Source: a virus. Taken from it: DNA of 64,000 bases. Made by a program: the position numbers and the translations under genes. The notes under the pieces were generated by a model. That model made no database searches. It worked only from the letters and a program-made list of their open reading frames with translations, and was not told the origin of the DNA. The DNA is taken from IMG/VR virus record IMGVR_UViG_3300034159_000051, positions 32,001 to 96,000 of that record. The stretch is one strand, 5' to 3'. Positions 12,826 to 53,309 of the stretch are shown here, one piece after another (the stretch's first letter is position 1; every line of letters begins with the position of its first letter).

Positions 12826-13791
12826 TTAGTCCGCCACTATGGCGCTAAGAGCCGCGGCGACTTGTCCGCCGTGGTCTGCTCTATTGTCATCATACCGCAG
12901 AATCGTTTTTATATCCAAGTGTCTAGAGAACTTTCCAACCTTTCTGAAATCGCCGCCAAAAACATCGAGCGCCGCGGTGATGGCGCTATGGCGCAGGCCG
13001 TGCGGACGCGCAATGATGCCGATCTCCTCGCCAAGCTTCCGCACGATCTTATGGATGGCGGACCCGCTGAGTCTTGTATGCGTCGGAGGCGTCGAGAGGC
13101 TGATAAAGAGCGGAGCGTCCGCCGCATCGTCGCCGCGCAGGGCGAGCCACGCCGCCAGGGCGTCGCGTACAACCCCGGCCGGGAGCGTCAATGTCTCGCG
13201 CTCGCTTCGCCCCTTTCCCATTATCGAAAGCGTTCCGTTGAGGTCGACATGCCCGACATTGAGGCTGGCGATCTCCCCTCTCCGAAGCCCGAGGCCAAAA
13301 CCCAACAGCAGAATCGCGACGTCGCGCGCCGCCTTGTTCGGGTTCTTGTGCTCGCCAGCCGCCTTGATCATTTTTCGGACGTTGGCGACCCCAGGCCCCC
13401 GCGTATCGCGGTAGGCTTGCGTAGCCTCCCCCTTGATCTCCAGGCGCAGCTCTGTCGCCCCGAACCCGCGAGCGGCCGTCACGAATGAATTCAGCGCGAA
13501 CAGGCTGCGATTGATCGAGGATGGCGACAAGCCCTCCTTGAGTTTATTCTGCCTCCATGCAGCTACTACGGCGCGGGCTTGGCCATCATCAAGAGCAAGA
13601 AACCACCGGATCGCATCAGCAAGATCGCCAGCCTTTACAAAGGAAGCAAACGCCTTCAATTCATATTTGTAAGCGCGCTTCGTATTGTCCGAGGGGAACC
13701 CGGCCAGCCATAGGCCGAGCGCCGTTTCGGCGGTAATATCCTGGGTAAGCGTCAGGCTACGCCCTTGGCTTATCTCAATTAGATCGTTCAC
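12826..13791 (-). CDS. Tyrosine recombinase (XerC/D-like)
   Basis: RDVAIL..GLRRGEI, GKG, HGLRHS, RHLDIKTILRY: R-K-H-R-H-Y catalytic residues. Confidence 0.92.
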   Translation of the reverse strand: MNDLIEISQGRSLTLTQDITAETALGLWLAGFPSDNTKRAYKYELKAFASFVKAGDLADAIRWFLALDDGQARAVVAAWRQNKLKEGLSPSSINRSLFALNSFVTAARGFGATELRLEIKGEATQAYRDTRGPGVANVRKMIKAAGEHKNPNKAARDVAILLLGFGLGLRRGEIASLNVGHVDLNGTLSIMGKGRSERETLTLPAGVVRDALAAWLALRGDDAADAPLFISLSTPPTHTRLSGSAIHKIVRKLGEEIGIIARPHGLRHSAITAALDVFGGDFRKVGKFSRHLDIKTILRYDDNRADHGGQVAAALSAIVAD

Positions 13792-16700: not shown

Positions 16701-18933
16701 TAGCCTTCTGGAACGAGATAGCCCTGAGCTGCGTAGAATTCGCGCGCCAGCTCATTCGCTTGCTTTAATATTTCTTCTGGGGTCTTCATGCTGCATCCTC
16801 CGTATCCCAATTGCGAGCGCGAGCTTGCGCTTTGTAGGCGCGATCTGCCTTGATCGAAAGCGCGGAATATTTCGGCTCGTTGCCTATTTCGTATTGTTCG
16901 CGGGCTTCCCAGAGAAGAGCGTCCGTCTCGCCTTCGCTCGCAAGCTCGGCGTTCAGCATTTCCCACCAAGCAACGAAGCTTAGCTTTTTCTTGGTGAGGG
17001 TCTTTTCCCGTTCTGTGAAGGCCATGATTCTGATCCCTTTTCCGAGTTTTTAATTTAATAAATAACTGCAAGTCTTAAGCACGTATAGCCGAGTTCGGTC
17101 GGGTTCCCGTCCCATATTTTGAGGGCCTCGTCAGCGTCTATTTGACGTCCATGCGCAGCGGAGATGTATTTGCAGATGGCTTCGTCTTTGGACTGAGCCA
17201 TCGAAAGGCTAACCTCTTTTCCGCTTGGATCGATTACGACCCAGAATGTTGTTTTCGTCGCCATGTCAACGCGGCCTTGTTTCGGAAGTGAAGCCGATTG
17301 TGAACTGACGCCAGATCCACGCCTTTTGCTTGACGTCCCAGGCGAACCCTTCGTTTGGGTCATCCGGCATATTGACCTTGATCATGATCACGTTGCGGTA
17401 TTCGTTGATGGCTTGGCGCAGGCAGGTCTTGGTCTTGCGCTGGGTCCAGCCGAGGTGGAGGAAAAGCCCGCCCGGGCCACGAAGCGCCATCTCATATTTT
17501 GTCGTCTTGACTGATCCCATCATGGACATGGTTCTGGTCCCTTGGTGGAGGGCGCTTAATGTGCGCCGCCTCGGCTTGCTCAAACTTGCGCTTTTCGCCT
17601 TCACGAATTAGGGCGCAGATTTTATCGTTGACCTCCGTTTCGATCCCGGCTGCTTCAAGCAAGCCGAGGATGTCATCTTCGAGTTGTGTTGTATCGCCGC
17701 ACTGCACATCGCAATGGCGGTCCCAGGCCTGAGAGGGACATGAGATCATGACCGGGCCGCCTGTTTTCGCTGAAACCTAAGTTTGTCGAGTTCCCAGTAG
17801 GTTGGCATATCGTCATCAAGCGCCGGGGCGATATTCACGCGGACGGCTGAGTCGGCCGGCAGGCAGCGATTAGCCTCGGCCTCGGCTTCCTGCGGTGAAT
17901 CAAACAGTTGCGCGCGCGACCGGTCCGCCCAATAGGCGCCGCTCCGCTCCATCGATGGGAGCAGATAGATGTGGAACGGCTCTGGGATCTGTCCAGGATG
18001 GTTCGGCCCGCGAGCCGGACGGAAATCCGTGGTCGACATCGAACGAACGACCCATTTCTTCTGAAGAACTGCGCGGAGAGCTTTGATTCTTTCTTCGCGT
18101 GACTGTGTCATCTCTATATTCCTCTATCTGATCCCTTGGTGGAGGTGCGCTTAGCGCGCCTCGATAACCTGCCAAAACTCCGAACGAGCGAAGTTCCAAT
18201 ATTTGGCCCTGTAGTCATGCTCTTGCATTAGAACACCTTCAAGGTGAGCAAAAGCATGATCATGGTCGGCCTTCTGCTCGATGGCTTTCATTGCGTGGGC
18301 TCGGCCAAGGTTACGCATGATGTTTTTGCAAGCGGTGCGATAGGCTGGGTTCTGTTCAAGTTCTGAAAGTTCTTCACGGAGCGCCATTTGATTTGTTCCT
18401 ATCTGACCCCTTGAAGGAGGGCGCTTATCGCGCCACCTCGGCCTCGATGATTTCCTTACGAACGATGCGAACGCCTTCCTTTTTGTTCGCGCAGCTTTCG
18501 GAGGCTTGGTCGGCGGCGATGCGCGTGCTGGAAAATCCAGTCTTGAGGGCTTGTCGGTGCTGGCCCTTGAGGACGGCGCCGGTGATCGGATCAAAAGACC
18601 AAGGAATGTCGAGTTCGACGAGCCAGCCGTAACGAAGCGTGGCGTTTGTCGTCGTGCGCGAGATCGCCGATCCGTCTTCGAAGGTCACCGTGAGTTTCCG
18701 TTTTGCCATTTTCGTGCTTCCTGATCCCTGGGGGCGGCCGGCGCTTAGAGCGCCTCCACCAAATTCACCGTATCCATGACGCGGGTGTGCTGCTTCGCGT
18801 TCGGATCAAGGCACTTCACATCGGCCATCCAGCGCTCCTTGCTCCTGCGGGTGCTGAGCCAAGGGCCGTGAACGATTTCGTAGGATTTCCCGTTCAGCTT
18901 GTGTCTGTAAACTTTTCCAGCTTCGAGTTTCAT
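13791..18933 (-). other. About 20 small early hypothetical CDS (e.g. 13791-14078, 14098-14514, 14534-14749, 14805-15107, 15067-15324, 15338-15577, 15574-15780, 15793-16068, 16081-16323, 16362-16583, 16580-16789, 16786-17025, 17055-17264, 17492-17749, 17746-18111, 18425-18709, 18745-18933)
   Basis: Contiguous minus-strand ORFs; many starts preceded by AGGGATCAGA; no recognisable domains. Confidence 0.6.
16344..16372 (-). promoter_or_regulatory. Sigma70-type promoter
   Basis: TTGCTA-17 nt-TATATT on the minus strand. Confidence 0.65.
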
Positions 18934-46454: not shown

Positions 46455-47153
46455 TTGAGCCAGCATGAATCTCTCACCTTGCTCGATCATGTTGTCGAGC
46501 ACGAGCGCCTTCAGGCCATCATCAACGACCTCAAGGCCGATCAGAAATCCGTCATCAAGGCGGCCCGCGCGCAGGGCTTTGATTCAAAAGGGTTTCGCGA
46601 GGTCATCAAATACTATCGCATGAGCGAAAGCGAGCGCGAGGAGTTTGAGGCCATTCGCGAGCTTATGATGCGCGAAATGGGCTGGCTGGCGGACACGCCA
46701 CTCGGCTCCGCCGCTATCCGCCGCTTTGAGAACGCCTACCTTCCAAAATCGCCTGAGAACGGCGCCAACGGCCATTCTGGGCCGCAGGAAGGCGGAGAAG
46801 CCCCAGAAGGCTCCGACGCCGCCCCGAAGCGTCCGGGCCGCGCACCGGCCGTCCCAAGGCCACCAGAAAAGACTCAAGAGGAAAAGGAGGCTGAACTTAA
46901 GGAAGAGTTCAGATTAGCTCTTGAGGCCGGGACTGAAGCCGGAAAGCAGTGGGTCGAAAACGGGCAAGACCCAAAATATGGCTTTTTAAGCAACCCGTAT
47001 CTTGGGTTTAACCCGTGTCGCCTTGAATGGGCCAAGGGTTGGCGCTCCGCAACGGGAAGCGATGGCATGGAGTTGCCGCCACACCTCAAAAGTAAAAAGA
47101 AACCCAAAAAGAAGAAGGACGACGACAAAAAAGACGGGAAGGATGGGGAATAA
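46455..47153 (+). CDS. GapR (DUF2312)-like nucleoid protein with C-terminal extension
   Basis: VEHERL...DQKSV..AARAQGFDSK..REVI...ERE.FEA; LADTPLG.AA motif. Confidence 0.7.
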   Translation: MSQHESLTLLDHVVEHERLQAIINDLKADQKSVIKAARAQGFDSKGFREVIKYYRMSESEREEFEAIRELMMREMGWLADTPLGSAAIRRFENAYLPKSPENGANGHSGPQEGGEAPEGSDAAPKRPGRAPAVPRPPEKTQEEKEAELKEEFRLALEAGTEAGKQWVENGQDPKYGFLSNPYLGFNPCRLEWAKGWRSATGSDGMELPPHLKSKKKPKKKKDDDKKDGKDGE

Positions 47154-47974
47154 TGAAAGATTTGACCCCCCTTTACAGGGACATCGAAAAGCTATTGCGT
47201 GAGATCGTCACCCAGCACGGCAAAGCTCTTATCGAGACGCAAAGCGAGTACGGCGCCGGCGCAATCTCCATCAACGTCACAGCGAAAGTTGGAATCGGCG
47301 GGAAAAACCATGAATTCTCACTCACGCTGGATGTGGACCGGGACGACAAAGACGAAACCGACGACGATGACGACGAAGAGGAGTGCTCCGGAGAATGGAA
47401 AATCCAGTAAAAATTGTGTCTCGCCCGACCCTCGAAATCAAGGTCACGCGCGGGGATACCCTGGAAACAAACAGCGACGTCCAGGTGTGGGTGAACGATT
47501 TTCTTTTTGTCTCAATCCATTATGATTGGCGCTTCACCTCAAACGCTCATCAATGGGATCTGGGAGAGCAAATCGCTGGTGCTCTAAGGAAGGCCGTCAA
47601 AGAGCACCCTGGGGTATCGTAGCCGTCCGGTTTTTGTGGTATCGTGGCTGGATTAAAAGAAAGGGATCAGATGACAAAAGAAAAACCAGTGAAGCCGCCG
47701 CGCGGCGTTGTCGCCATCATCGCCGGTCCGGATGGCCACGTTTGGGCGACCGCCAATGATTTCAACGATTACAGCCGAGACCGAGATAGCGAACAGCTCT
47801 GGGCGCAAACAATAAAAGTGAAGGAATTTGTCGCCTTCGAGCTTTTTAATCGGTCATGTAACCAGAATATCATCGGCGTAATTGAAGCGCACGAGCGCGA
47901 GGCCTTTATGCAGAGGCTCATTAGCAAAAGAGGCTTTCGCCTCACCATTCAAGCAATCGGCTACGAGGGATCAG

Positions 47975-48970
47975 ATGACAAGCAATTATAGGCGACCTAG
48001 CGATCTTCCGGGGCGCTACGCCCCAAGAGGCGGCGCCGCCGACGACAAAAAGACGGCGATGCAGCGCCAAGAAGAAAGAATCAAAGAGATCCTGGGGCCT
48101 TGGTGCACCGTCAAAGACAAGAATCCGCCGCATCCTATTTTCCCGCGCCATGTCCGTGATTCTCTTCAGAAATGGATGATCGAACTCACGCCCGAGGCGG
48201 CGGCCGGACTAAAAGCGCTCAAAACTGAGCCCAGGCGGTCCGCCCTGCTTCACGGGAAACCGGGAACAGGAAAAACCTCTTATACGCACACATTCGCGGC
48301 GCATATGGGGCTTCCCCTGGCGATCGTCGATTCCAACCGCGTCATTGAAAAATGGGTAGGAGAGTCGGCGGCGAACTGCGGGCGTCTCCTCAAGGCGATG
48401 GATAGCGTCTACGATCAATGCCTCATTTTCTTCGATGAGATCGACGCCCTGGCGACGGCGCGAACCGGCGAGGGCGGGGCATCCAGAGAGCGCGAGCAGG
48501 CCATGAACGTTCTCATGACCGGTCTGGAGGATTACAAGGGCATCTGGGTCGCAGCCACCAACCTTGAGTCGAACCTGGACGGCGCATTCTGGCGGCGTTT
48601 CAATTTGCAGGTCCATATTCCGATGCCAGGGCCTGCGGAGCGCTTTGCAATCATCCGAATGTACGCGGAGCCGCTTTATCCAAGCGATGACGCCACCCAG
48701 CTTTTGGTCGACGCCACCGCAAACGCATCGCCGGCGCTCATCAAGGATTTGATCCAAGGCGTGAAACGAAACATCGTTTTGTGGCCGATGATCTACCCAG
48801 GCCGCGAGTTGATCCCATCTGATCTATTTAGGGATGTCATCACCTCCCTCTCTCCGCCTCCAAAACAAGAAAAGCCGCCGCTATGGCTTACGGAGAGCGC
48901 CGTTGACGATCTCGATAGAATGGACTGGCCCTGGCGGGATACGCCGCCCGAAGGAGAAGACGAGGAATGA
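47975..48970 (+). CDS. AAA+ ATPase
   Basis: GKPGTGKT, KWVGES, FFDEIDA, ATN and LD.AFWRRF motifs; GAGGGATCAG-ATG start. Confidence 0.92.
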   Translation: MTSNYRRPSDLPGRYAPRGGAADDKKTAMQRQEERIKEILGPWCTVKDKNPPHPIFPRHVRDSLQKWMIELTPEAAAGLKALKTEPRRSALLHGKPGTGKTSYTHTFAAHMGLPLAIVDSNRVIEKWVGESAANCGRLLKAMDSVYDQCLIFFDEIDALATARTGEGGASREREQAMNVLMTGLEDYKGIWVAATNLESNLDGAFWRRFNLQVHIPMPGPAERFAIIRMYAEPLYPSDDATQLLVDATANASPALIKDLIQGVKRNIVLWPMIYPGRELIPSDLFRDVITSLSPPPKQEKPPLWLTESAVDDLDRMDWPWRDTPPEGEDEE

Positions 48971-49370
48971 CAACCCCATCCAGAACGCCGCGAGATGTTA
49001 TGAAGGCGCCTGGGAGTGTCCGGGCCGCTCTAGAGCGCAAAACGGCTGCGCCTCCAGAAAATCCCGCATTCGAGCCGTACCAAAGGCCGGGCGGCTTCAA
49101 GGGCGGCCCCAAAAAAAGCAGGCACTTTGACGAGCCGGATTATATCCGGCCGTTCATCCTCGCGACCCAAGACGGCAAGCCCAGCGCCGATCGTGGCGTA
49201 GGGATCGCGCGCGATTGCGTCGGCGGCGTGTGCGCCGGTGCGCAACCGAATGTCACAATCCTTTATCCGAGAGGAGGGAAGGGAGTCCCGGTCGTCGGGG
49301 ACTGGAGAGACATATATAGATGGTGGATCAAAGGCTATCCGAAATGCAAGCTCCCGGTTTAGCCGCTGGC

Positions 49371-49399
49371 TTGCGTAGCGATTAAGCGGAGGTTATAGT
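49371..49399 (+). promoter_or_regulatory. Sigma70-type promoter of the guide-array operon
   Basis: TTGCGT-17 nt-TATAGT immediately before the first stem-loop unit. Confidence 0.7.
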
Positions 49400-49530
49400 C
49401 TTTGAAAGAGGGTCGGCCCAGAGAACATATCCATTCATAGGCCGTATTGCGGTTGCCGACTTTCTTTCAAAGCCGCGCCGGGGCCAAGCGCTGCCTGTAA
49501 CCCGATACCGGTTTTCTCTGGCGCGGCTTT
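49400..49530 (+). ncRNA. Two leader dual-spacer stem-loop units
   Basis: stem-GGCCC-AGAGAACAT-loop-TATTGCGGT-TGCC-stem; stem-GGCCA-AGCGCTGCC-TGTAACCCG-ATACCGGTT-stem. Confidence 0.65.
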
Positions 49531-49551
49531 GAACAAACGAAAGGGATCAGA

Positions 49552-50346
49552 ATGGAACACAACAAAGCAACGGAGACGCCAAGGTTCGCTACGCCTCCGG
49601 TGTTTGCCGTCTCTCAATTCGAAAAACAGCGCATGCTCATCCTCCATGCATGGTATTCCGATTTTATCGCTGAGGGCGGCAAGCCGGTTGAATTTATGCG
49701 CGAGGTTATCGTGCGTATCCACCGCGTTCAGACCGTTTTTGACGGCAAGCTGTCCGTCAACGCGTTGTTCGAACCCATCCCGCCCCGGGCGGATGATAAC
49801 CCCTTCGATTCCTCTTCGGCTGGCCCGGTTTCTGGCGCCGACGGCCACACCACCAACGCCAGCCGATCCCCCAATGAGCAGGGCCGAAAGGATGGCGCCG
49901 AAAGGCTGGTCGCTGATCGCCCTGCTCAGCATGAAAGCGCCTCCGGCCAGGAAGCAGACGCTCAAGGTCGCGAGCCGAGCGCCGGAAGCGCTCCCCAAGA
50001 CGGCGGGCGAGGTCATAATGACCTTGCCGGCAACGGCCGCCACGTTAGCGCCTCGCCCGTCCGTCGAAACACCGGTCCCAATGAGCTGCAGCGGGAAATC
50101 GCCCGAGAAGTCGCCCAATCGGCCGCCAAGACGATCCTGGAAACATTCCGGTTCGCGAACGGGTCCGCCCTCGGCGAGGTTTATCTTAACGACCTCGAAA
50201 ACTACGAGATGAAAAGCTCCGTTGACGCCTTTGTCGCCCGGCAAATCCGGCTCGCGTTCAAAGGCCACCCAAATTGCCGGGTCAAGGAGCTGCCTCTTGG
50301 GACCATTGAGGCGATCGTCAGCCGAGCCAACAAAGAGGCCGAGTGA
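49552..50346 (+). CDS. Hypothetical protein whose central linker is encoded by four guide-like units
   Basis: AAGGGATCAGA-ATG start; globular-looking ends; stop overlaps the start of the Nop-domain gene. Confidence 0.7.
   Translation: MEHNKATETPRFATPPVFAVSQFEKQRMLILHAWYSDFIAEGGKPVEFMREVIVRIHRVQTVFDGKLSVNALFEPIPPRADDNPFDSSSAGPVSGADGHTTNASRSPNEQGRKDGAERLVADRPAQHESASGQEADAQGREPSAGSAPQDGGRGHNDLAGNGRHVSASPVRRNTGPNELQREIAREVAQSAAKTILETFRFANGSALGEVYLNDLENYEMKSSVDAFVARQIRLAFKGHPNCRVKELPLGTIEAIVSRANKEAE
49818..50060 (+). ncRNA. Four dual-spacer stem-loop units inside the CDS
   Basis: Same stem-GGCCN-9nt-loop-9nt-CGCC-stem grammar as the downstream array. Confidence 0.75.
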
Positions 50347-51209
50347 TGGGCGAGGATATCGAAAGGCTCGTCGAGCAGATCCGCTATTGGCACCGGCAGC
50401 GCTGTTTCGCGATGGAACAGCGCAAGCGATCGGTTTTGGCCACGGCGGCTTTTTTGCGCATCGACCTCGGCTGGAACCCGGACCTTCCTAAAAAAGAGCG
50501 CGACGTCATCTCCGCCAAGGCGCTCGACATGCTTAAGCCGGGCGGCGTCGCCCCAGAACATCCTATGTTCGAAATGATCATGGCCTCCCATGCCGCGCGG
50601 GCGCCGTTTCTCGGCGTAGAGACAAAGGCGACGAAACAAATGGAAGCGCTCGCCAAGACGTTGCCGGTCTGGAACGCATGGGCGCGCGACGTCCGGGCGT
50701 TCGGCCCGCGATCGCTTGCCGTCATTGTCGGAGAGGCTGGAGACATTGGCTCCTACAGCACGCATTCGAAGCTTTGGAAACGCATGGGCCTCGCCGTCAT
50801 CAACGGCGTGCGGCAGGGCGGCCTGAAAAAGACGGCCAAAGCCTCGGAATGGATCGAGCACGGCTACAACGCCAAGCGCCGCGCATCGTCCTTTGTGATC
50901 GGAGATTGCCTTGTGAAGCAGGGCGCGGAGTTCCGCGAAGTCTATCTCGCCAGGAAGGAATATGAGCGCGCCAAGGCCATCGAGCGCGGTCTGATCGTTG
51001 CGCCGGCCGCCAAGATCCCAAAAGGCCAGGAGGAGCATTACATCTCCGACGGCCACATCCATAAGCGCAGCCAGCGCTACATGGAAAAGAAGCTCCTGCG
51101 CCGGTTATGGCAGGAATGGCGGAAGATCGGCAGGGAGGACATGACCCAACCTGGAGACGCCGACATCCCGCCGCTCGCTATGGAGCGCGTTAACGAGATC
51201 GCCGCATGA
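50343..51209 (+). CDS. Nop-domain RNA-binding protein, TIGR-TasA-like (IS110 C-terminal homolog, no nuclease domain)
   Basis: Coiled coil, then VRAFGPRSLAVIVGEAGDIGSYSTHSKLWKRMGLAV (Transposase_20/Nop-like), GYN..R and GHIHKRSQRYMEKKLL..LW..WR; no RuvC/DEDD or HNH domain visible; adjacent array. Confidence 0.85.
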   Translation: MMGEDIERLVEQIRYWHRQRCFAMEQRKRSVLATAAFLRIDLGWNPDLPKKERDVISAKALDMLKPGGVAPEHPMFEMIMASHAARAPFLGVETKATKQMEALAKTLPVWNAWARDVRAFGPRSLAVIVGEAGDIGSYSTHSKLWKRMGLAVINGVRQGGLKKTAKASEWIEHGYNAKRRASSFVIGDCLVKQGAEFREVYLARKEYERAKAIERGLIVAPAAKIPKGQEEHYISDGHIHKRSQRYMEKKLLRRLWQEWRKIGREDMTQPGDADIPPLAMERVNEIAA

Positions 51210-52128
51210 GCGGCGCGCGGGAGGCCAGTTCAGCTACGCCGAGCGGCCGCTTGGTTATCGCCTCCCGCGACTCGGTTAAGCAGGGCCAGCGTACTGACGC
51301 CGAGAGGCTGGTTATGGATCGCCCTGCTTTCGAATCAGGAGAGGCCATTGGCTAAGAGCCGCAAGGACATACTGCATCCGCCTCTCCTTTCCTTTTTCTC
51401 GGGTCACAGCAAACGAGCCGATAGGCCACGTCAACCTTTCCCGAGAATCCGGTTAAGCAGGGCCTTGCCAATAGATCCGAAAGGCCATGGTCCGGACGCC
51501 CTGCTTTCCCTTTTGCGAGGCCCAACACCAGCCGCCGAAAGGCCATCCTTTCTGCGCCTCGCAATCCCTTTTCCTTGGGCCAATACGTTCGCGCGAAAGC
51601 CAAGCTCGCATCGCCCAAGGTTCCCACTTTGCGAGGCCAAACTCGCGCTGCCGAAAGGCCATGGTTTCAGCACCTCGCAATCCCCTATGGGCGGGTCCAA
51701 GTCTCGTCGCCGCAAGGCCGAGGACCGAATTCCCGCCCAACCCAACGACGGAAGGCCAGCGATCGCGCTCCATCGAAGGTCATCGAATTGGCGCCTTCCG
51801 TCCCCCTCATTCAAAGTTTGCCGGGCCATTCATGAATTGCCGCACAGCCAAAGAGCTAACGCCCGGCGCCTTCTTTGTAGGGCCAGAACTATCGCGCCGG
51901 AAGGCCGCGTCGACTCTGCCCTGCAAAACTATTTCGCGAGGCCAGCTAGCGATTGGCGAAAGCCCAAACCAAAAACGCCTCGCGATCCTCAACGACGGAA
52001 GGCCATATTACGCGCGCGCTACAGCGCCATGGACTTTTCGCCTTCCGTCTTTCTATTCAGAGTTTGCCAGGACAGCCTTCTAATGCCTAACGGCCACCCC
52101 TGCTTTTCCTGGCGCTCTTCACAAGAGT

Positions 52129-52205
52129 GGTCCCGTAGCTCAACTGGACAGAGCGCCAGCCTTCTAAGCTGGGTGTTGGGGGTTCAAGTCCCTCCGGGAT
52201 CGCCA
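52129..52205 (+). tRNA. tRNA-Arg(TCT), embedded in the array
   Basis: GGTCCCG acceptor stem; CCAGC-CTTCTAA-GCTGG anticodon arm; GGTTCAAGTCC; encoded CCA. Confidence 0.95.
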
Positions 52206-52583
52206 ACCCTTTGCCGGGCCGGATTACTATCGCCGCAAGGCTATCCACGAAGCGCCCGGCGATCCCTTTGCGAGACCTCCATACGGATGCCGAAAGGCCA
52301 AAAATGGGACGTCTCGCATCCCTACAGCCCGGCCACCTCCTGCGCGCCGAGAGGTCAGTCAAACCACGCCGGGCTACTTCTTGCAGGGCCAAATCAGATG
52401 CGTCGAGAGTCCATTTTTCCGGCCGCCCTGCATCCTATCCGCTTCGGCGGGCGCGCGGCCGCGGATGGAAAGTCGAAAGGCCGCCCTTGTCTTGCCGCGC
52501 GCAACCCTTTGCCGGGCCACTGCCTAAGCGCCGAAAGGTCAGGTTATCACTGCCCGGCGATTCATTTACAAGGATGCGATTTC

Positions 52584-52883
52584 TTGAACGACTTTCCGAA
52601 AGCTCTCAATGAATGGCAATCCAAGCTCTACGATCTCGGATACCCGGGGCCTTATGAAGCGGGATCGATGATGATTGCCGCTACGCGAAAAAGAAGAATC
52701 GATAATTTTAGCCTTGTTAGATATTCCCCCAGGGACTGGCATGCCGAAGTAACATTCAAGCCCGACCAAAGGCCGGCAACTGTTGATCACCCTTATGGCT
52801 CCCTTGAGGGAAAGGGCAAGACCCCAGAAGAAGCCGTCGCAAATCTCATGATTGCGCATCCTGAACTTTGGCGGGTAGCATAA
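52584..52883 (+). CDS. Small hypothetical protein inserted in the array
   Basis: AAGGA then a TTG start; non-repetitive; ends GKTPEEAVANL, like 21191-21565 (GATPEEAVADL). Confidence 0.6.
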   Translation: MNDFPKALNEWQSKLYDLGYPGPYEAGSMMIAATRKRRIDNFSLVRYSPRDWHAEVTFKPDQRPATVDHPYGSLEGKGKTPEEAVANLMIAHPELWRVA

Positions 52884-53309
52884 TGCATCCTCTTTGCGAG
52901 GCCCATGAACTGGAGCCGATCGGCCTCATATGATTCGCCTTGCAATCCGAACGACGAAAGGCCATCCGACCTACGCCGAAAGGCTAGTTTGTAATCGCCT
53001 TCCGTCACCCCTTCCGCCTCTGGCGGGCGCGCGGCCATACGGCCATAGCCGCAAGGCCACTGCAGCGTCGCCGCGCGCAAAGTTTGTCTGGCCTCCATGC
53101 GGACGCCGAAGGCCAAGCGTATAGCGCCAGACAAACCCATTCCGACGGGCCATGGGAGTCTCGCCGAAAGGTCGTTCTTCAGACGCCCGTCGGAACCTTC
53201 TTGCGCTGTGACTGGCGAAGCAGTTATAGGATCCCTTGCGGTCTGAGGGAGGGAAGCCTGATCCGGTTCAGTTTTGCGTTAGTGGGGACACGCAAACACG
53301 GATCATCCT

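Follow-up and report, generated by a model that had tools for sequence, protein, structure and literature searches.

A probable stem-loop TIGR-TasA system with an extended guide array in a tailed phage

A phage locus in which the gene for a 288-aa protein runs into a long row of hairpins raises two questions: which molecular machine is encoded there, and at what nucleic acid is it aimed? The stretch of DNA that was analyzed (the window) is 64,000 nucleotides long. It belongs to a tailed phage whose complete 129-kb genome has direct terminal repeats and carries an integrase gene. The phage is known from metagenomes only.

Compact and free of any PAM requirement, TIGR-Tas systems bind DNA under RNA guidance and are currently under development as tools. 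In Faure 2025 and Xu 2026, their natural targets, the acquisition of spacers, and the role of the nuclease-free protein TasA are named as open questions. The locus described here is very probably a stem-loop TIGR-TasA system, the guides of which direct DNA binding without cleavage.

A Tas protein without a nuclease domain

The 288-aa protein (TasA) matches the NCBIfam model NF052498 ("TIGR_Tas_endo") at 106.9 bits (cut-off 100; E 1.4e-30), and a phmmer search of the PDB returns 9mty_A (E 3.2e-9). Its AlphaFold2 model (pLDDT 85) is all-helical from residue 2, and the ten top Foldseek matches in the PDB are all TasR or TasH chains. VIA-align ranks TasH/TasR (Z 12.4-13.1 over 182-215 residues) above the IS110 family (10.1-10.5) and Nop5/Prp31 (6.8-7.4). 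The alignment to TasR covers its residues 111-301, past the RuvC domain, and that to TasH begins at residues 62-66, past the nuclease domain. No Pfam family is found in the protein, which thus lacks RuvC and HNH domains by the Pfam test. The first-pass annotation had described a Nop-domain, Tas-like protein lacking both nucleases and had proposed a Foldseek comparison with Nop5, IS110, and Tas; the description holds, and all three folds are matched, Tas best. In sum, a nuclease-free Tas protein is encoded here.

TaTasR (PDB 9MTY) and SpTasH (9W04) are the best sequence and fold matches. As in these systems, CCA precedes and YG follows each spacer, with a C-G pair between them (CCA/UG in TaTasR, as reported in Faure 2025). 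TasR and TasH use tandem spacers on opposite strands of targets of 16-18 bp, a mode that the phage guides may share. Unlike TasR/TasH, this locus replaces the conserved edge repeats with hairpin stems, and its predicted guides are about 50-60 nt long rather than 36 nt. Cleavage, also unlike TasR/TasH, is not expected because the RuvC and HNH domains are absent.

An IS110 family transposase was considered and rejected. The match to the NCBIfam IS110 model NF033542 reaches 16.5 bits, below the cut-off of 140 (E 0.0035), and covers model positions 120-295 only, the C-terminal part of the model. The Pfam families DEDD_Tnp_IS110 and Transposase_20 give no match at E<=1. Bridge-RNA recombinases of this family (IS621, ISCro4) share the RNA-binding coiled-coil and C-terminal fold over 165 residues, as well as bispecific guide loops. 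They differ in possessing a DEDD/RuvC domain. The TasA model covers recombinase residues about 124-314 only. They also use one bridge RNA, whereas the phage has a many-unit array and no transposon ends.

The box C/D snoRNP core (Nop5, Nop56/58) and Prp31 likewise share the Nop fold, and box C/D-like motifs border the two guide segments of the guide RNA. A snoRNP was rejected, as only the fold matches (Z ~7) and no methyltransferase, fibrillarin, or L7Ae family is matched among the proteins neighbouring tasA. No K-turn is present, Rfam reports no snoRNA above its gathering score, and the only guide that can be interpreted depends on both strands of DNA and not on an RNA target.

Organization of the guide array

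The features of the locus are listed in Table 1. The first stem begins 7 nt past the tasA stop codon, in agreement with the earlier statement that hairpins directly follow the gene. All 26 A/B spacer pairs of that annotation were recovered on the + strand between 51228 and 53183, in the order given. The whole downstream hairpins span 51216-53195; their length is 48-62 nt and that of their outer stems 8-12 bp. The array is broken twice, by a tRNA gene and by an open frame, and the 99-aa translation of the latter has no match in PHROGs, NCBIfam, or Pfam. Four intragenic units, one of them weak, bring the guide total to ~30; the multi-guide scale annotated before stands, with this count in place of "about 32". 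A search of 49000-53200 returned neither a sigma-70-like promoter nor an intrinsic terminator, so the locus has a presumed transcription unit. Among public runs, no RNA data set was listed as holding it.

Table 1. Features of the locus, with positions in the window.
Feature	Position	Strand	Basis or remark
Upstream partner gene, 264 aa	49552..50346	+	ORF list; stop codon overlaps tasA start
Four intragenic stem-loop guide units	49816..50061	+	Covariance model R1 and stem/loop parse
tasA, 288-aa Tas protein, Nop fold, without nuclease domain	50343..51209	+	NCBIfam, PDB phmmer, AlphaFold2, VIA-align
Sub-array 1, units 1-15	51216..52114	+	Spacer positions, alignment, covariance model, stem parse
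Unit 15	52065-52114	+	8+8 target is the anticodon arm of tRNA-Arg(TCT) genes
tRNA-Arg(tct) gene inside the array, 14 nt past unit 15	52129..52205	+	ARAGORN; Rfam RF00005, 65.3 bits
Sub-array 2, units 16-21	52211..52560	+	Spacer positions, alignment, covariance model, stem parse
Putative 99-aa open frame inside the array, TTG start	52584..52883	+	Frame read from the sequence
Sub-array 3, units 22-26	52894..53195	+	Spacer positions, alignment, covariance model, stem parse

The scaffold of a unit reads stem-GG-CCA-N9-YGCC-(GNRA-like loop)-GGCCA-N9-YG-CC-stem. In an alignment of 28 units, standard pairs occupy 90.6% of cells vs 70.6% in shuffles, and 0 of 500 shuffles reach the observed value. As a control, sliding the 3' partner by 1-3 columns lowers pairing to 30-44%. 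Both-sided changes are seen in 11 of the 13 pairs. The outer stem has such changes in 9 of 10 pairs with 89.6% of cells paired, which is the pattern of the stem-loop subtype.

The covariance model R1, a check that had been suggested with the original annotation, matches units on the + strand only. It also recovers the intragenic unit 49816-49866 (match 49813-49870) at 45.1 bits, though this unit was absent from its training set. The other intragenic units lie at 49875-49928 (43.5 bits), 49936-49992 (16.2 bits, weak), and 50002-50061 (38.9 bits).

Spacers are all distinct (60/60 across 30 units) and are 9+9 nt long, inside the 8-12 nt range of TIGR-Tas. The sole ambiguous one is spacer B of unit 19, which is either 10 nt long or 9 nt long with a 14-nt loop. 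Between units with near-identical scaffolds (at least 24 of 28 positions), spacer identity is near random at 31%. The boxes follow the TIGR-Tas order CCA - spacer A - YG...CCA - spacer B - YG. Box C is CCA in 17 of the 26 downstream units, box D is CG or TG in 22 of them, and a C:G pair joins the boxes in 23/28 (outer) and 22/28 (inner) units. The loop repeat has 13 nt, folded into a 3-bp helix that a GNRA-like tetraloop caps, unlike the 9-nt loops of most relatives. Pyrimidines dominate the linkers, and CUU occurs close to the stem base in 11 of 30 units against a background of 10.7%.

A CRISPR array was rejected as an identity for these repeats. A direct-repeat search yields only 10-12 nt motifs and one 64-nt pair, whereas CRISPR repeats are identical, 25-36 nt long, and set apart by single spacers; the units are hairpins with two 9-nt spacers, and cas families have no match among the neighbouring proteins examined. 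Nuclease-free CRISPR interference (type IV, type V-M) is a functional analogy only, a possible parallel also cited in Faure 2025: it is likewise RNA-guided DNA binding without cleavage borne by mobile elements. The proteins are unrelated, and the CRISPR systems have a single long spacer, a PAM, Cas proteins, and adaptation machinery.

The layout had been thought uncharacterised, a view that the literature overturns. Stem-loop TIGR arrays with TasA were described by Faure 2025, a 2026 catalogue holds 2,559 such arrays with 17,756 tigRNAs, and a cryo-EM structure of a stem-loop TasA has the same dimeric scaffold (Guan 2026). Known members include PlTasA from a Peromyscus gut contig, BlTasA of Bifidobacterium longum, and MbTasA of Minisyncoccota (Faure 2025, Xu 2026, Guan 2026). 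The layout is not new, and the locus is a further stem-loop TIGR-TasA case. Shared features are a solo Nop-domain protein without a nuclease, carriage by phages, and variable but always palindromic stems that replace edge repeats. Units upstream of, downstream of, or within coding sequence, pyrimidine-rich linkers, and CUU near the stem base are also held in common. Differences are the number of units (~30 vs a mean of ~6.9 per array, our division of 17,756 by 2,559), intragenic units placed in a separate upstream gene and not in tas, and the tRNA gene and open frame inside the array. The present system is described from its sequence and a structural model.

Partner gene and related loci

The 264-aa ORF upstream of tasA has no match in Pfam, PHROGs, or NCBIfam. 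Its N- and C-terminal parts are conserved, and its variable middle carries the four guide units. A syntenic ORF lies directly upstream of tas in five related loci (L001, L002, L004, L005, and L007), where a C-terminal stretch of ~85 aa is conserved; a further homolog, P0125, is 40% identical. The loop repeat translates in frame to A-E-R, a motif conserved in the partner-protein alignment. In relatives, the orthologous intragenic units keep their stems and differ in their spacers.

Related loci also bear on whether the hairpins are guides at all. They might instead be structural or selfish repeats (REP/MITE-like elements, terminators, or processing signals) beside a decayed IS110 transposase remnant devoid of guide function. 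The PHROGs label of the protein family, "transposase" (phrog_4285, E 2.4e-22), and the weak C-terminal match to the IS110 model point that way, but the cut-off of the TIGR-Tas model is passed and that of the IS110 model is not. The protein is also conserved, with 637 homologs at E<=0.001 and 45 invariant columns in an alignment of 42 sequences. Units of the same kind flank homologous proteins in at least 32 other loci. Across 498,846 bases from 38 related loci, a strict structural pattern finds 149 units on the tas strand vs 5 on the other, with 147 of the 149 placed between -2500 and +1500 relative to the tas start. Spacers A and B tend to end in complementary bases (84/141 units in relatives), and these last bases covary across loci, which a passive repeat would not predict. 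Repeats beside a transposase remnant have next to no probability on this evidence.

Proposed action and targets

Other TasA proteins repress transcription in a guide-dependent manner and bind target DNA in vitro, according to Xu 2026. Programmable DNA binding and repression had been proposed for the phage TasA in the first-pass annotation, in line with that activity. The partner gene, tasA, and the array would be co-transcribed from the + strand. The transcript may be cut in its pyrimidine-rich linkers (UCCCUU-like) into hairpin tigRNAs of ~50-60 nt, while the usual tRNA-processing enzymes would free the embedded tRNA. One tigRNA would be held by a TasA dimer joined through an N-terminal coiled coil. 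The two spacers would pair with opposite DNA strands, spacer A in one half-site and spacer B in the one next to it, so a target should consist of the spacer A sequence and then the reverse complement of spacer B. The 3' overhangs published for TasR require the same order (Faure 2025). As there is no nuclease, the complex would remain on the DNA and block transcription or other access.

A search for spacer A plus the reverse complement of spacer B had been recommended at the outset and gave a match for a single guide. Neither the phage genome, where no guide target was found, nor the 645 kb of loci searched shows enrichment over shuffled spacer pairings. One prophage-borne guide from a relative (L004, first unit) finds no counterpart in the genome of its own host when 0-1 mismatch is allowed. 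The remaining 29 of 30 guides have no target identified in the genome and locus searches. With ~30 guides and no targets in the phage itself, the system would be aimed at other DNA, that of the host or of competing mobile elements.

The exception is unit 15, the 8+8 form of which is found exactly in tRNA-Arg(TCT) genes. This target, which was first picked out by eye from 30 units and several candidate offsets, is exact in 15 of 401 sampled genomes of one order, where ~0.8 are expected by chance. All five exact loci that were checked are tRNA-Arg(tct) genes, and 10 of the 12 viral contigs with an exact match have it inside tRNA-Arg(tct). At <=1 mismatch, the pattern occurs in 34 places vs 19 for a reversed control, so the signal rests on the exact matches and their place within tRNA genes. 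The guide would thereby fit a widespread form of the tRNA-Arg(UCU) gene, in its anticodon arm.

The adjacent tRNA-Arg(tct) of the phage matches the unit-15 target at only 14 of 16 positions, as a compensated A:U swap in its anticodon stem interrupts the match halfway along spacer B. All 9 nt of spacer A are identical to this tRNA gene 84 nt away, so the unit-15 match may have arisen by local recombination. An 11-nt direct repeat (family D5) is common to the unit and the tRNA.

A rival reading is that the guides act on RNA, like box C/D snoRNAs. TasA, perhaps with the upstream protein, would then be led to tRNAs or mRNAs and would modify or sequester them. In unit 15, spacer B complements nucleotides 37-45 of tRNA-Arg(UCU), the Nop fold is common to Nop5 and Prp31, and RNA-metabolism genes are abundant nearby (Ro60/TROVE, RlaP nucleotidyltransferase, and a tRNA cluster). 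Spacer A, however, has the same sense as the tRNA and pairs only with the opposite DNA strand, not with the RNA; both spacers are used only by a double-stranded DNA target. TasR showed no activity on RNA substrates in Faure 2025, and the methyltransferase or L7Ae-like partner of a snoRNP was not found adjoining tasA. An RNA target is very improbable.

Transfer RNA genes are common integration sites. The same machine could have another job, in which TasA bends or marks DNA, e.g., at tRNA-gene attachment sites, and so helps or blocks site-specific recombination for the phage's own integrase or against competitors. The phage encodes a tyrosine integrase (window 12826-13791), and the sole guide with a recognisable match fits the tRNA-Arg(TCT) anticodon arm. 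A role for TasA as an RNA-guided integrase aid was proposed in Faure 2025 on the ground that TasR imposes a bend of about 180 degrees on its target. Against this, the array is separated from the integrase gene by ~37 kb, and an attP was not found. Guides match the phage genome no better than chance, so none points to attP, and 29 of 30 are without a known target. Repression is the only activity so far shown for TasA proteins (Xu 2026). A recombination role is unlikely, and DNA binding with repression is the preferred reading.

Unit 15 could give the first readable natural target of a TIGR system, its guide being aimed at the common-form tRNA-Arg(UCU) anticodon arm in the host or in rival tRNA-carrying phages. 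The phage would "bind the other copy, bring your own", or would mark a tRNA attachment site. Taken with the complementary spacer ends, the match would give a rule for the clade of 8+8 contiguous bp closed by one RNA-RNA pair at the dyad. This proposal, drawn from sequence comparison, is a speculative one and rather improbable.

The value of the locus lies in its setting: a complete phage genome, one of the longer stem-loop arrays, and a conserved partner gene that itself encodes guides. The locus also offers a candidate target rule, in which the last bases of both spacers pair, which suggests 8+8 bp. One guide of this array points to a recognisable gene.

A TasA protein followed by a hairpin array

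The 288-aa protein encoded by tasA has no match in Pfam, and PHROGs labels its family 'transposase'. NCBIfam model NF052498, 'TIGR-Tas system RNA-guided endonuclease', accepts the protein with 106.9 bits (cut-off 100), and the NCBIfam IS110 model rejects it with 16.5 bits (cut-off 140). The sole match in a phmmer search of PDB sequences is 9mty_A (E 3.2e-9), which is TaTasR according to Xu et al. 2026 (bioRxiv 10.64898/2026.09.09.750476). An AlphaFold2 model, built with 42 homologs as input, is entirely helical and has a pLDDT of 85. TasR and TasH chains make up the top 10 Foldseek matches in the PDB. When aligned with VIA-align, TasH and TasR score highest (Z 12.4-13.1, 182-215 residues aligned), followed by IS110-family recombinases (Z 10.1-10.5, 165 residues) and by Nop5, Nop56/58, and Prp31 (Z 6.8-7.4, 156-181 residues). 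The first-pass annotation had read the protein as a nuclease-less relative of Nop, IS110, and Tas proteins, and the fold comparison bears this out. The structural alignments start past the nuclease domains of TasR and TasH, which, on the predicted fold, identifies the protein as TasA, the nuclease-free form of Tas. Overall, the earlier interpretation of the locus holds.

Hairpin units follow tasA on the same strand (see table). All 26 spacer pairs reported in the first-pass annotation were recovered in the same order. Each unit is composed of a 5' stem arm ending in GG, CCA, spacer A (9 variable nt), YGCC, a short GNRA-like loop, GGCCA, spacer B (9 variable nt), YG, and CC with the 3' stem arm. 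Hairpins measure 48-62 nt, have outer stems of 8-12 bp, and are set apart by pyrimidine-rich linkers of 3-20 nt, typically TCCCTT.

Coordinates of the features in the window
Feature	Position	Strand	Evidence or detail
Tyrosine integrase	12826-13791	-	PF00589, 57.3 bits
GapR-like DNA-binding domain protein, 5' of locus	46455-47153	+	PF10073, 2.4e-11
AAA ATPase, 5' of locus	47882-48970	+	PF00004, 7.9e-25
9-mer GGGATCAGA	49541-49549	+	Immediately 5' of partner gene ATG
Upstream partner ORF, 264 aa	49552-50346	+	ORF reading
Unit in partner ORF, absent from training set	49813-49870	+	Covariance model, 45.1 bits
Unit in partner ORF, weak match	49936-49993	+	Covariance model, 16.2 bits
tasA ORF, 288 aa, overlaps partner ORF	50343-51209	+	ORF reading
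Run of hairpin units	First starts 7 nt past tasA stop codon, last ends 53195	+	
Linker before unit 20	52433-52450	+	Extra hairpin CCGC-TTCG-GCGG
99-aa open frame between units 21 and 22	52584-52883	+	TTG start, AAGGA before start
Linker before unit 24	53007-53026	+	Extra hairpin CCGCC-TCT-GGCGG
RlaP-type nucleotidyltransferase (RNA repair), just 3' of array	54420-55472	-	PF10127, 2e-9; phrog_388, 1.3e-84
HD_4 domain protein, just 3' of array	55668-56213	-	PF13328, 1e-10
Five further tRNA genes: Lys(ttt), Thr(tgt), Gln(ttg), Arg(acg), Met(cat)	56542-56993 and 61210-61286	- and +	
Ro60/TROVE protein, just 3' of array	57569-59209	-	PF25045, 2.8e-58; PF05731, 2.3e-30

The proposed structure was evaluated on an alignment of 28 units. 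Standard pairs occupy 90.6% of cells, compared with 70.6% in a column-shuffled control, and the observed value was reached in 0 of 500 shuffles. Pairing drops to 30-44% when the 3' partner is displaced by 1-3 columns, and 11 of 13 base pairs have compensatory changes. A covariance model made from the aligned units recovers the array with matches on the + strand only. The two model matches within the upstream ORF, together with two intragenic units already aligned, bring that ORF to four units. One strict-pattern match, at 17555-17588, was considered as an orphan unit and rejected, as it was missed by the covariance model and is not unit-like on inspection.

The 30 units contain 60 spacers, no two of them identical. 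In unit pairs that have a common scaffold (24 or more of 28 positions alike), spacer identity is 31%, compared with 25% across all pairs. Common scaffolds with nearly unrelated spacers show that the array has grown by scaffold duplication with replacement of the spacers. Units 20 and 24 have the stem GCGCGCGGC in common, and each is preceded by a linker with a small extra hairpin. The similar hairpins suggest duplication of a two-element block. The 99-aa open frame has no family match in PHROGs, NCBIfam, or Pfam; it may be a gene inserted into the array, or non-genic. Promoter and terminator scans returned none within the locus. In the Rfam scan, tRNA was the sole accepted match; GlsR24 (24.3 bits, gathering score 100) and mir-278 were below threshold and were taken as chance.

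The partner gene, related loci, and the phage

An ORF directly 5' of tas that ends at or near the tas start is also found at five related loci (L001, L002, L004, L005, and L007), and a further homolog of the partner protein is P0125. The seven partner proteins have a common C-terminal stretch of ~85 aa and a short common N-terminal part, with a variable middle. The covariance model places units in the upstream region of relatives too. Units in equivalent positions of different loci have kept their stems and differ in their spacers. The few conserved residues in the variable middle are due to the loop repeat, which reads in frame as A-E-R. Pfam, PHROGs, and NCBIfam assign the partner protein to no family, its Atlas matches (below 0.9) were treated as noise, and a word-based search returned one homolog besides the copy in the window. 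Two longer TasA homologs have N-terminal extensions that do not resemble the partner protein, and these therefore give no evidence of a fusion between partner and TasA.

TasA belongs to a large family. A near-length search returned 637 proteins at E<=0.001, many of them 50-65% identical and metagenomic. Relatives are encoded at 35 loci of reference genomes, including Aminobacter, Mesorhizobium, Zhengella, Hyphomicrobium, and Bauldia. Units were counted in 38 related loci using a strict pattern: two 9-nt segments, the first preceded by box C and the second followed by box D, are joined by a loop that runs from box D' to box C', and the whole is closed by an outer stem of 8 or more pairs. This pattern is present 149 times on the tas strand and 5 times on the opposite strand, with 147 of the 149 between -2500 and +1500 relative to the tas start. 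The highest count in one locus is 12; the pattern catches just 13 of the 30 units of the window, so the counts in related loci are underestimates. The loop repeat is 9 nt in most relatives, and is longer with a 3-bp helix in the phage and its nearest relatives. Five TasA homologs of 402-470 aa (P0005, P0013, P0018, P0024, and P0070) have low-complexity N- and C-terminal extensions with recurrent strings, e.g., SASIPAKAGKRR. These extensions may harbor intragenic guide units, comparable to those of Xu et al. 2026.

The phage genome is complete, with 129,260 bp and direct terminal repeats. The tyrosine integrase in this complete genome indicates that the phage may be temperate. The stretch is present in two DNA runs labelled peat metagenome, and the phage collection searched holds no close relative. 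RNA metabolism is the label for all three proteins encoded just 3' of the array. Four of the five further tRNA genes are clustered, ~3.3 kb past the array.

Spacer ends and target geometry

TasR cleavage leaves 8-nt 3' overhangs (Faure et al. 2025, PMC12045711). With cuts in each spacer-paired half, a 3' overhang can arise only when the part of a strand that is bound by its spacer is the 3' half. From this we derived that one target strand carries the sequence of spacer A and then that of the reverse-complemented spacer B.

Complementarity was counted for every position of spacer A against every position of spacer B (81 cells). In the 26 downstream units, the top cell is that of the final base of each spacer, a9 and b9, which pair in 20 of 26 units when G-U is included and in 15 by Watson-Crick pairing alone (uncorrected P 5e-5). 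The same cell is again the highest in 141 independent short-loop units of relatives, with 84 pairs observed and 52.9 expected (uncorrected P 9e-8; next cell 67). In 17 long-loop units of relatives, a9:b9 pairs in 11 and is not the top cell. The excess in the window and in short-loop relatives indicates that, judged from spacer sequences, the last bases of spacers A and B tend to pair. This fits an 8+8 bp target (8 nt of A, then 8 nt of the reverse complement of B, contiguous) and a single RNA-RNA pair at the dyad. It also fits with both spacers reading one common central base pair. A 2-nt overlap was rejected as a general target rule because its cells are not enriched in the downstream units (a8:b9 in 6 of 26, a9:b8 in 13 of 26).

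Six target models were used in searches: 9+9, a 17-mer with 1-nt overlap, 8+8, a 16-mer with 2-nt overlap, and two of opposite geometry. In the phage's own genome, 0 of 30 units beat shuffled A/B pairings under the six models. In 645 kb of collected loci, unit 15 was the only unit of the window with a match, and 3 of the 149 units of relatives matched at <=1 mismatch, compared with 14 of 443 in the null. The first unit of L004, a prophage relative, was the one unit searched against its own host (genomes G001-G005) with the 8+8 pattern, with no match at 0-1 mismatch.

Unit 15 and tRNA-Arg(tct)

A tRNA-Arg(tct) gene begins 14 nt past unit 15. Together with the CA before it, spacer A of this unit reproduces an 11-nt stretch of the anticodon arm in that neighboring tRNA (direct-repeat family D5). 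The match of unit 15 to tRNA-Arg(tct) was first spotted by eye, out of many possible ones. A search for the 8+8 target of this unit covered 401 genomes from the order to which G001 belongs. Exact matches occur at 15 places in 15 genomes, with ~0.8 estimated by chance. At <=1 mismatch there are 34 places in 31 genomes, and 19 places for the reversed control. All five loci inspected (two exact, two with one mismatch, one with two) have the match within a tRNA-Arg(tct) gene. IMG/VR contains 12 exact matches; 10 are in tRNA-Arg(tct) genes, several of these in phage tRNA clusters. None of the 15 genomes with an exact match encodes a TasA homolog.

The phage's own tRNA-Arg(tct) agrees with the unit 15 target at 14 of 16 positions, consistent with the best own-genome match of two mismatches. 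Of these two mismatched positions, one belongs to a compensated anticodon-stem swap, in an alignment whose tRNA sequences were picked for the pattern match and which is therefore no gauge of how unusual the phage tRNA is. The spacer could have been seeded by recombination from the neighboring tRNA. As A is tRNA sense and B is antisense, only a double-stranded target engages both spacers.

The first-pass annotation regarded the layout as uncharacterized, a view that published work does not support. The definitions of TIGR arrays and Tas proteins, as well as the tandem-spacer rule, come from Faure et al. 2025 (PMC12045711), who also described stem-loop arrays accompanied by TasA, with 13 units. 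The catalogue of Xu et al. 2026 (bioRxiv 10.64898/2026.09.09.750476) holds 2,559 stem-loop arrays and 17,756 tigRNAs; the same study also reports intragenic units, stem bases with a CUU motif, and guide-dependent transcriptional repression by TasA, and states that natural targets are not yet determinable. The structure of a stem-loop TasA complex is given by Guan et al. 2026 (bioRxiv 10.64898/2026.08.11.744272). Class and layout are thus already in print. The word 'tRNA' is absent from Xu et al. 2026, and the literature search found no paper coupling 'tigRNA' with 'tRNA gene'. The locus is one more member of the published stem-loop TIGR-TasA class, and its points of interest are its array size, a partner gene that itself carries guides, the a9:b9 rule, and one readable target.
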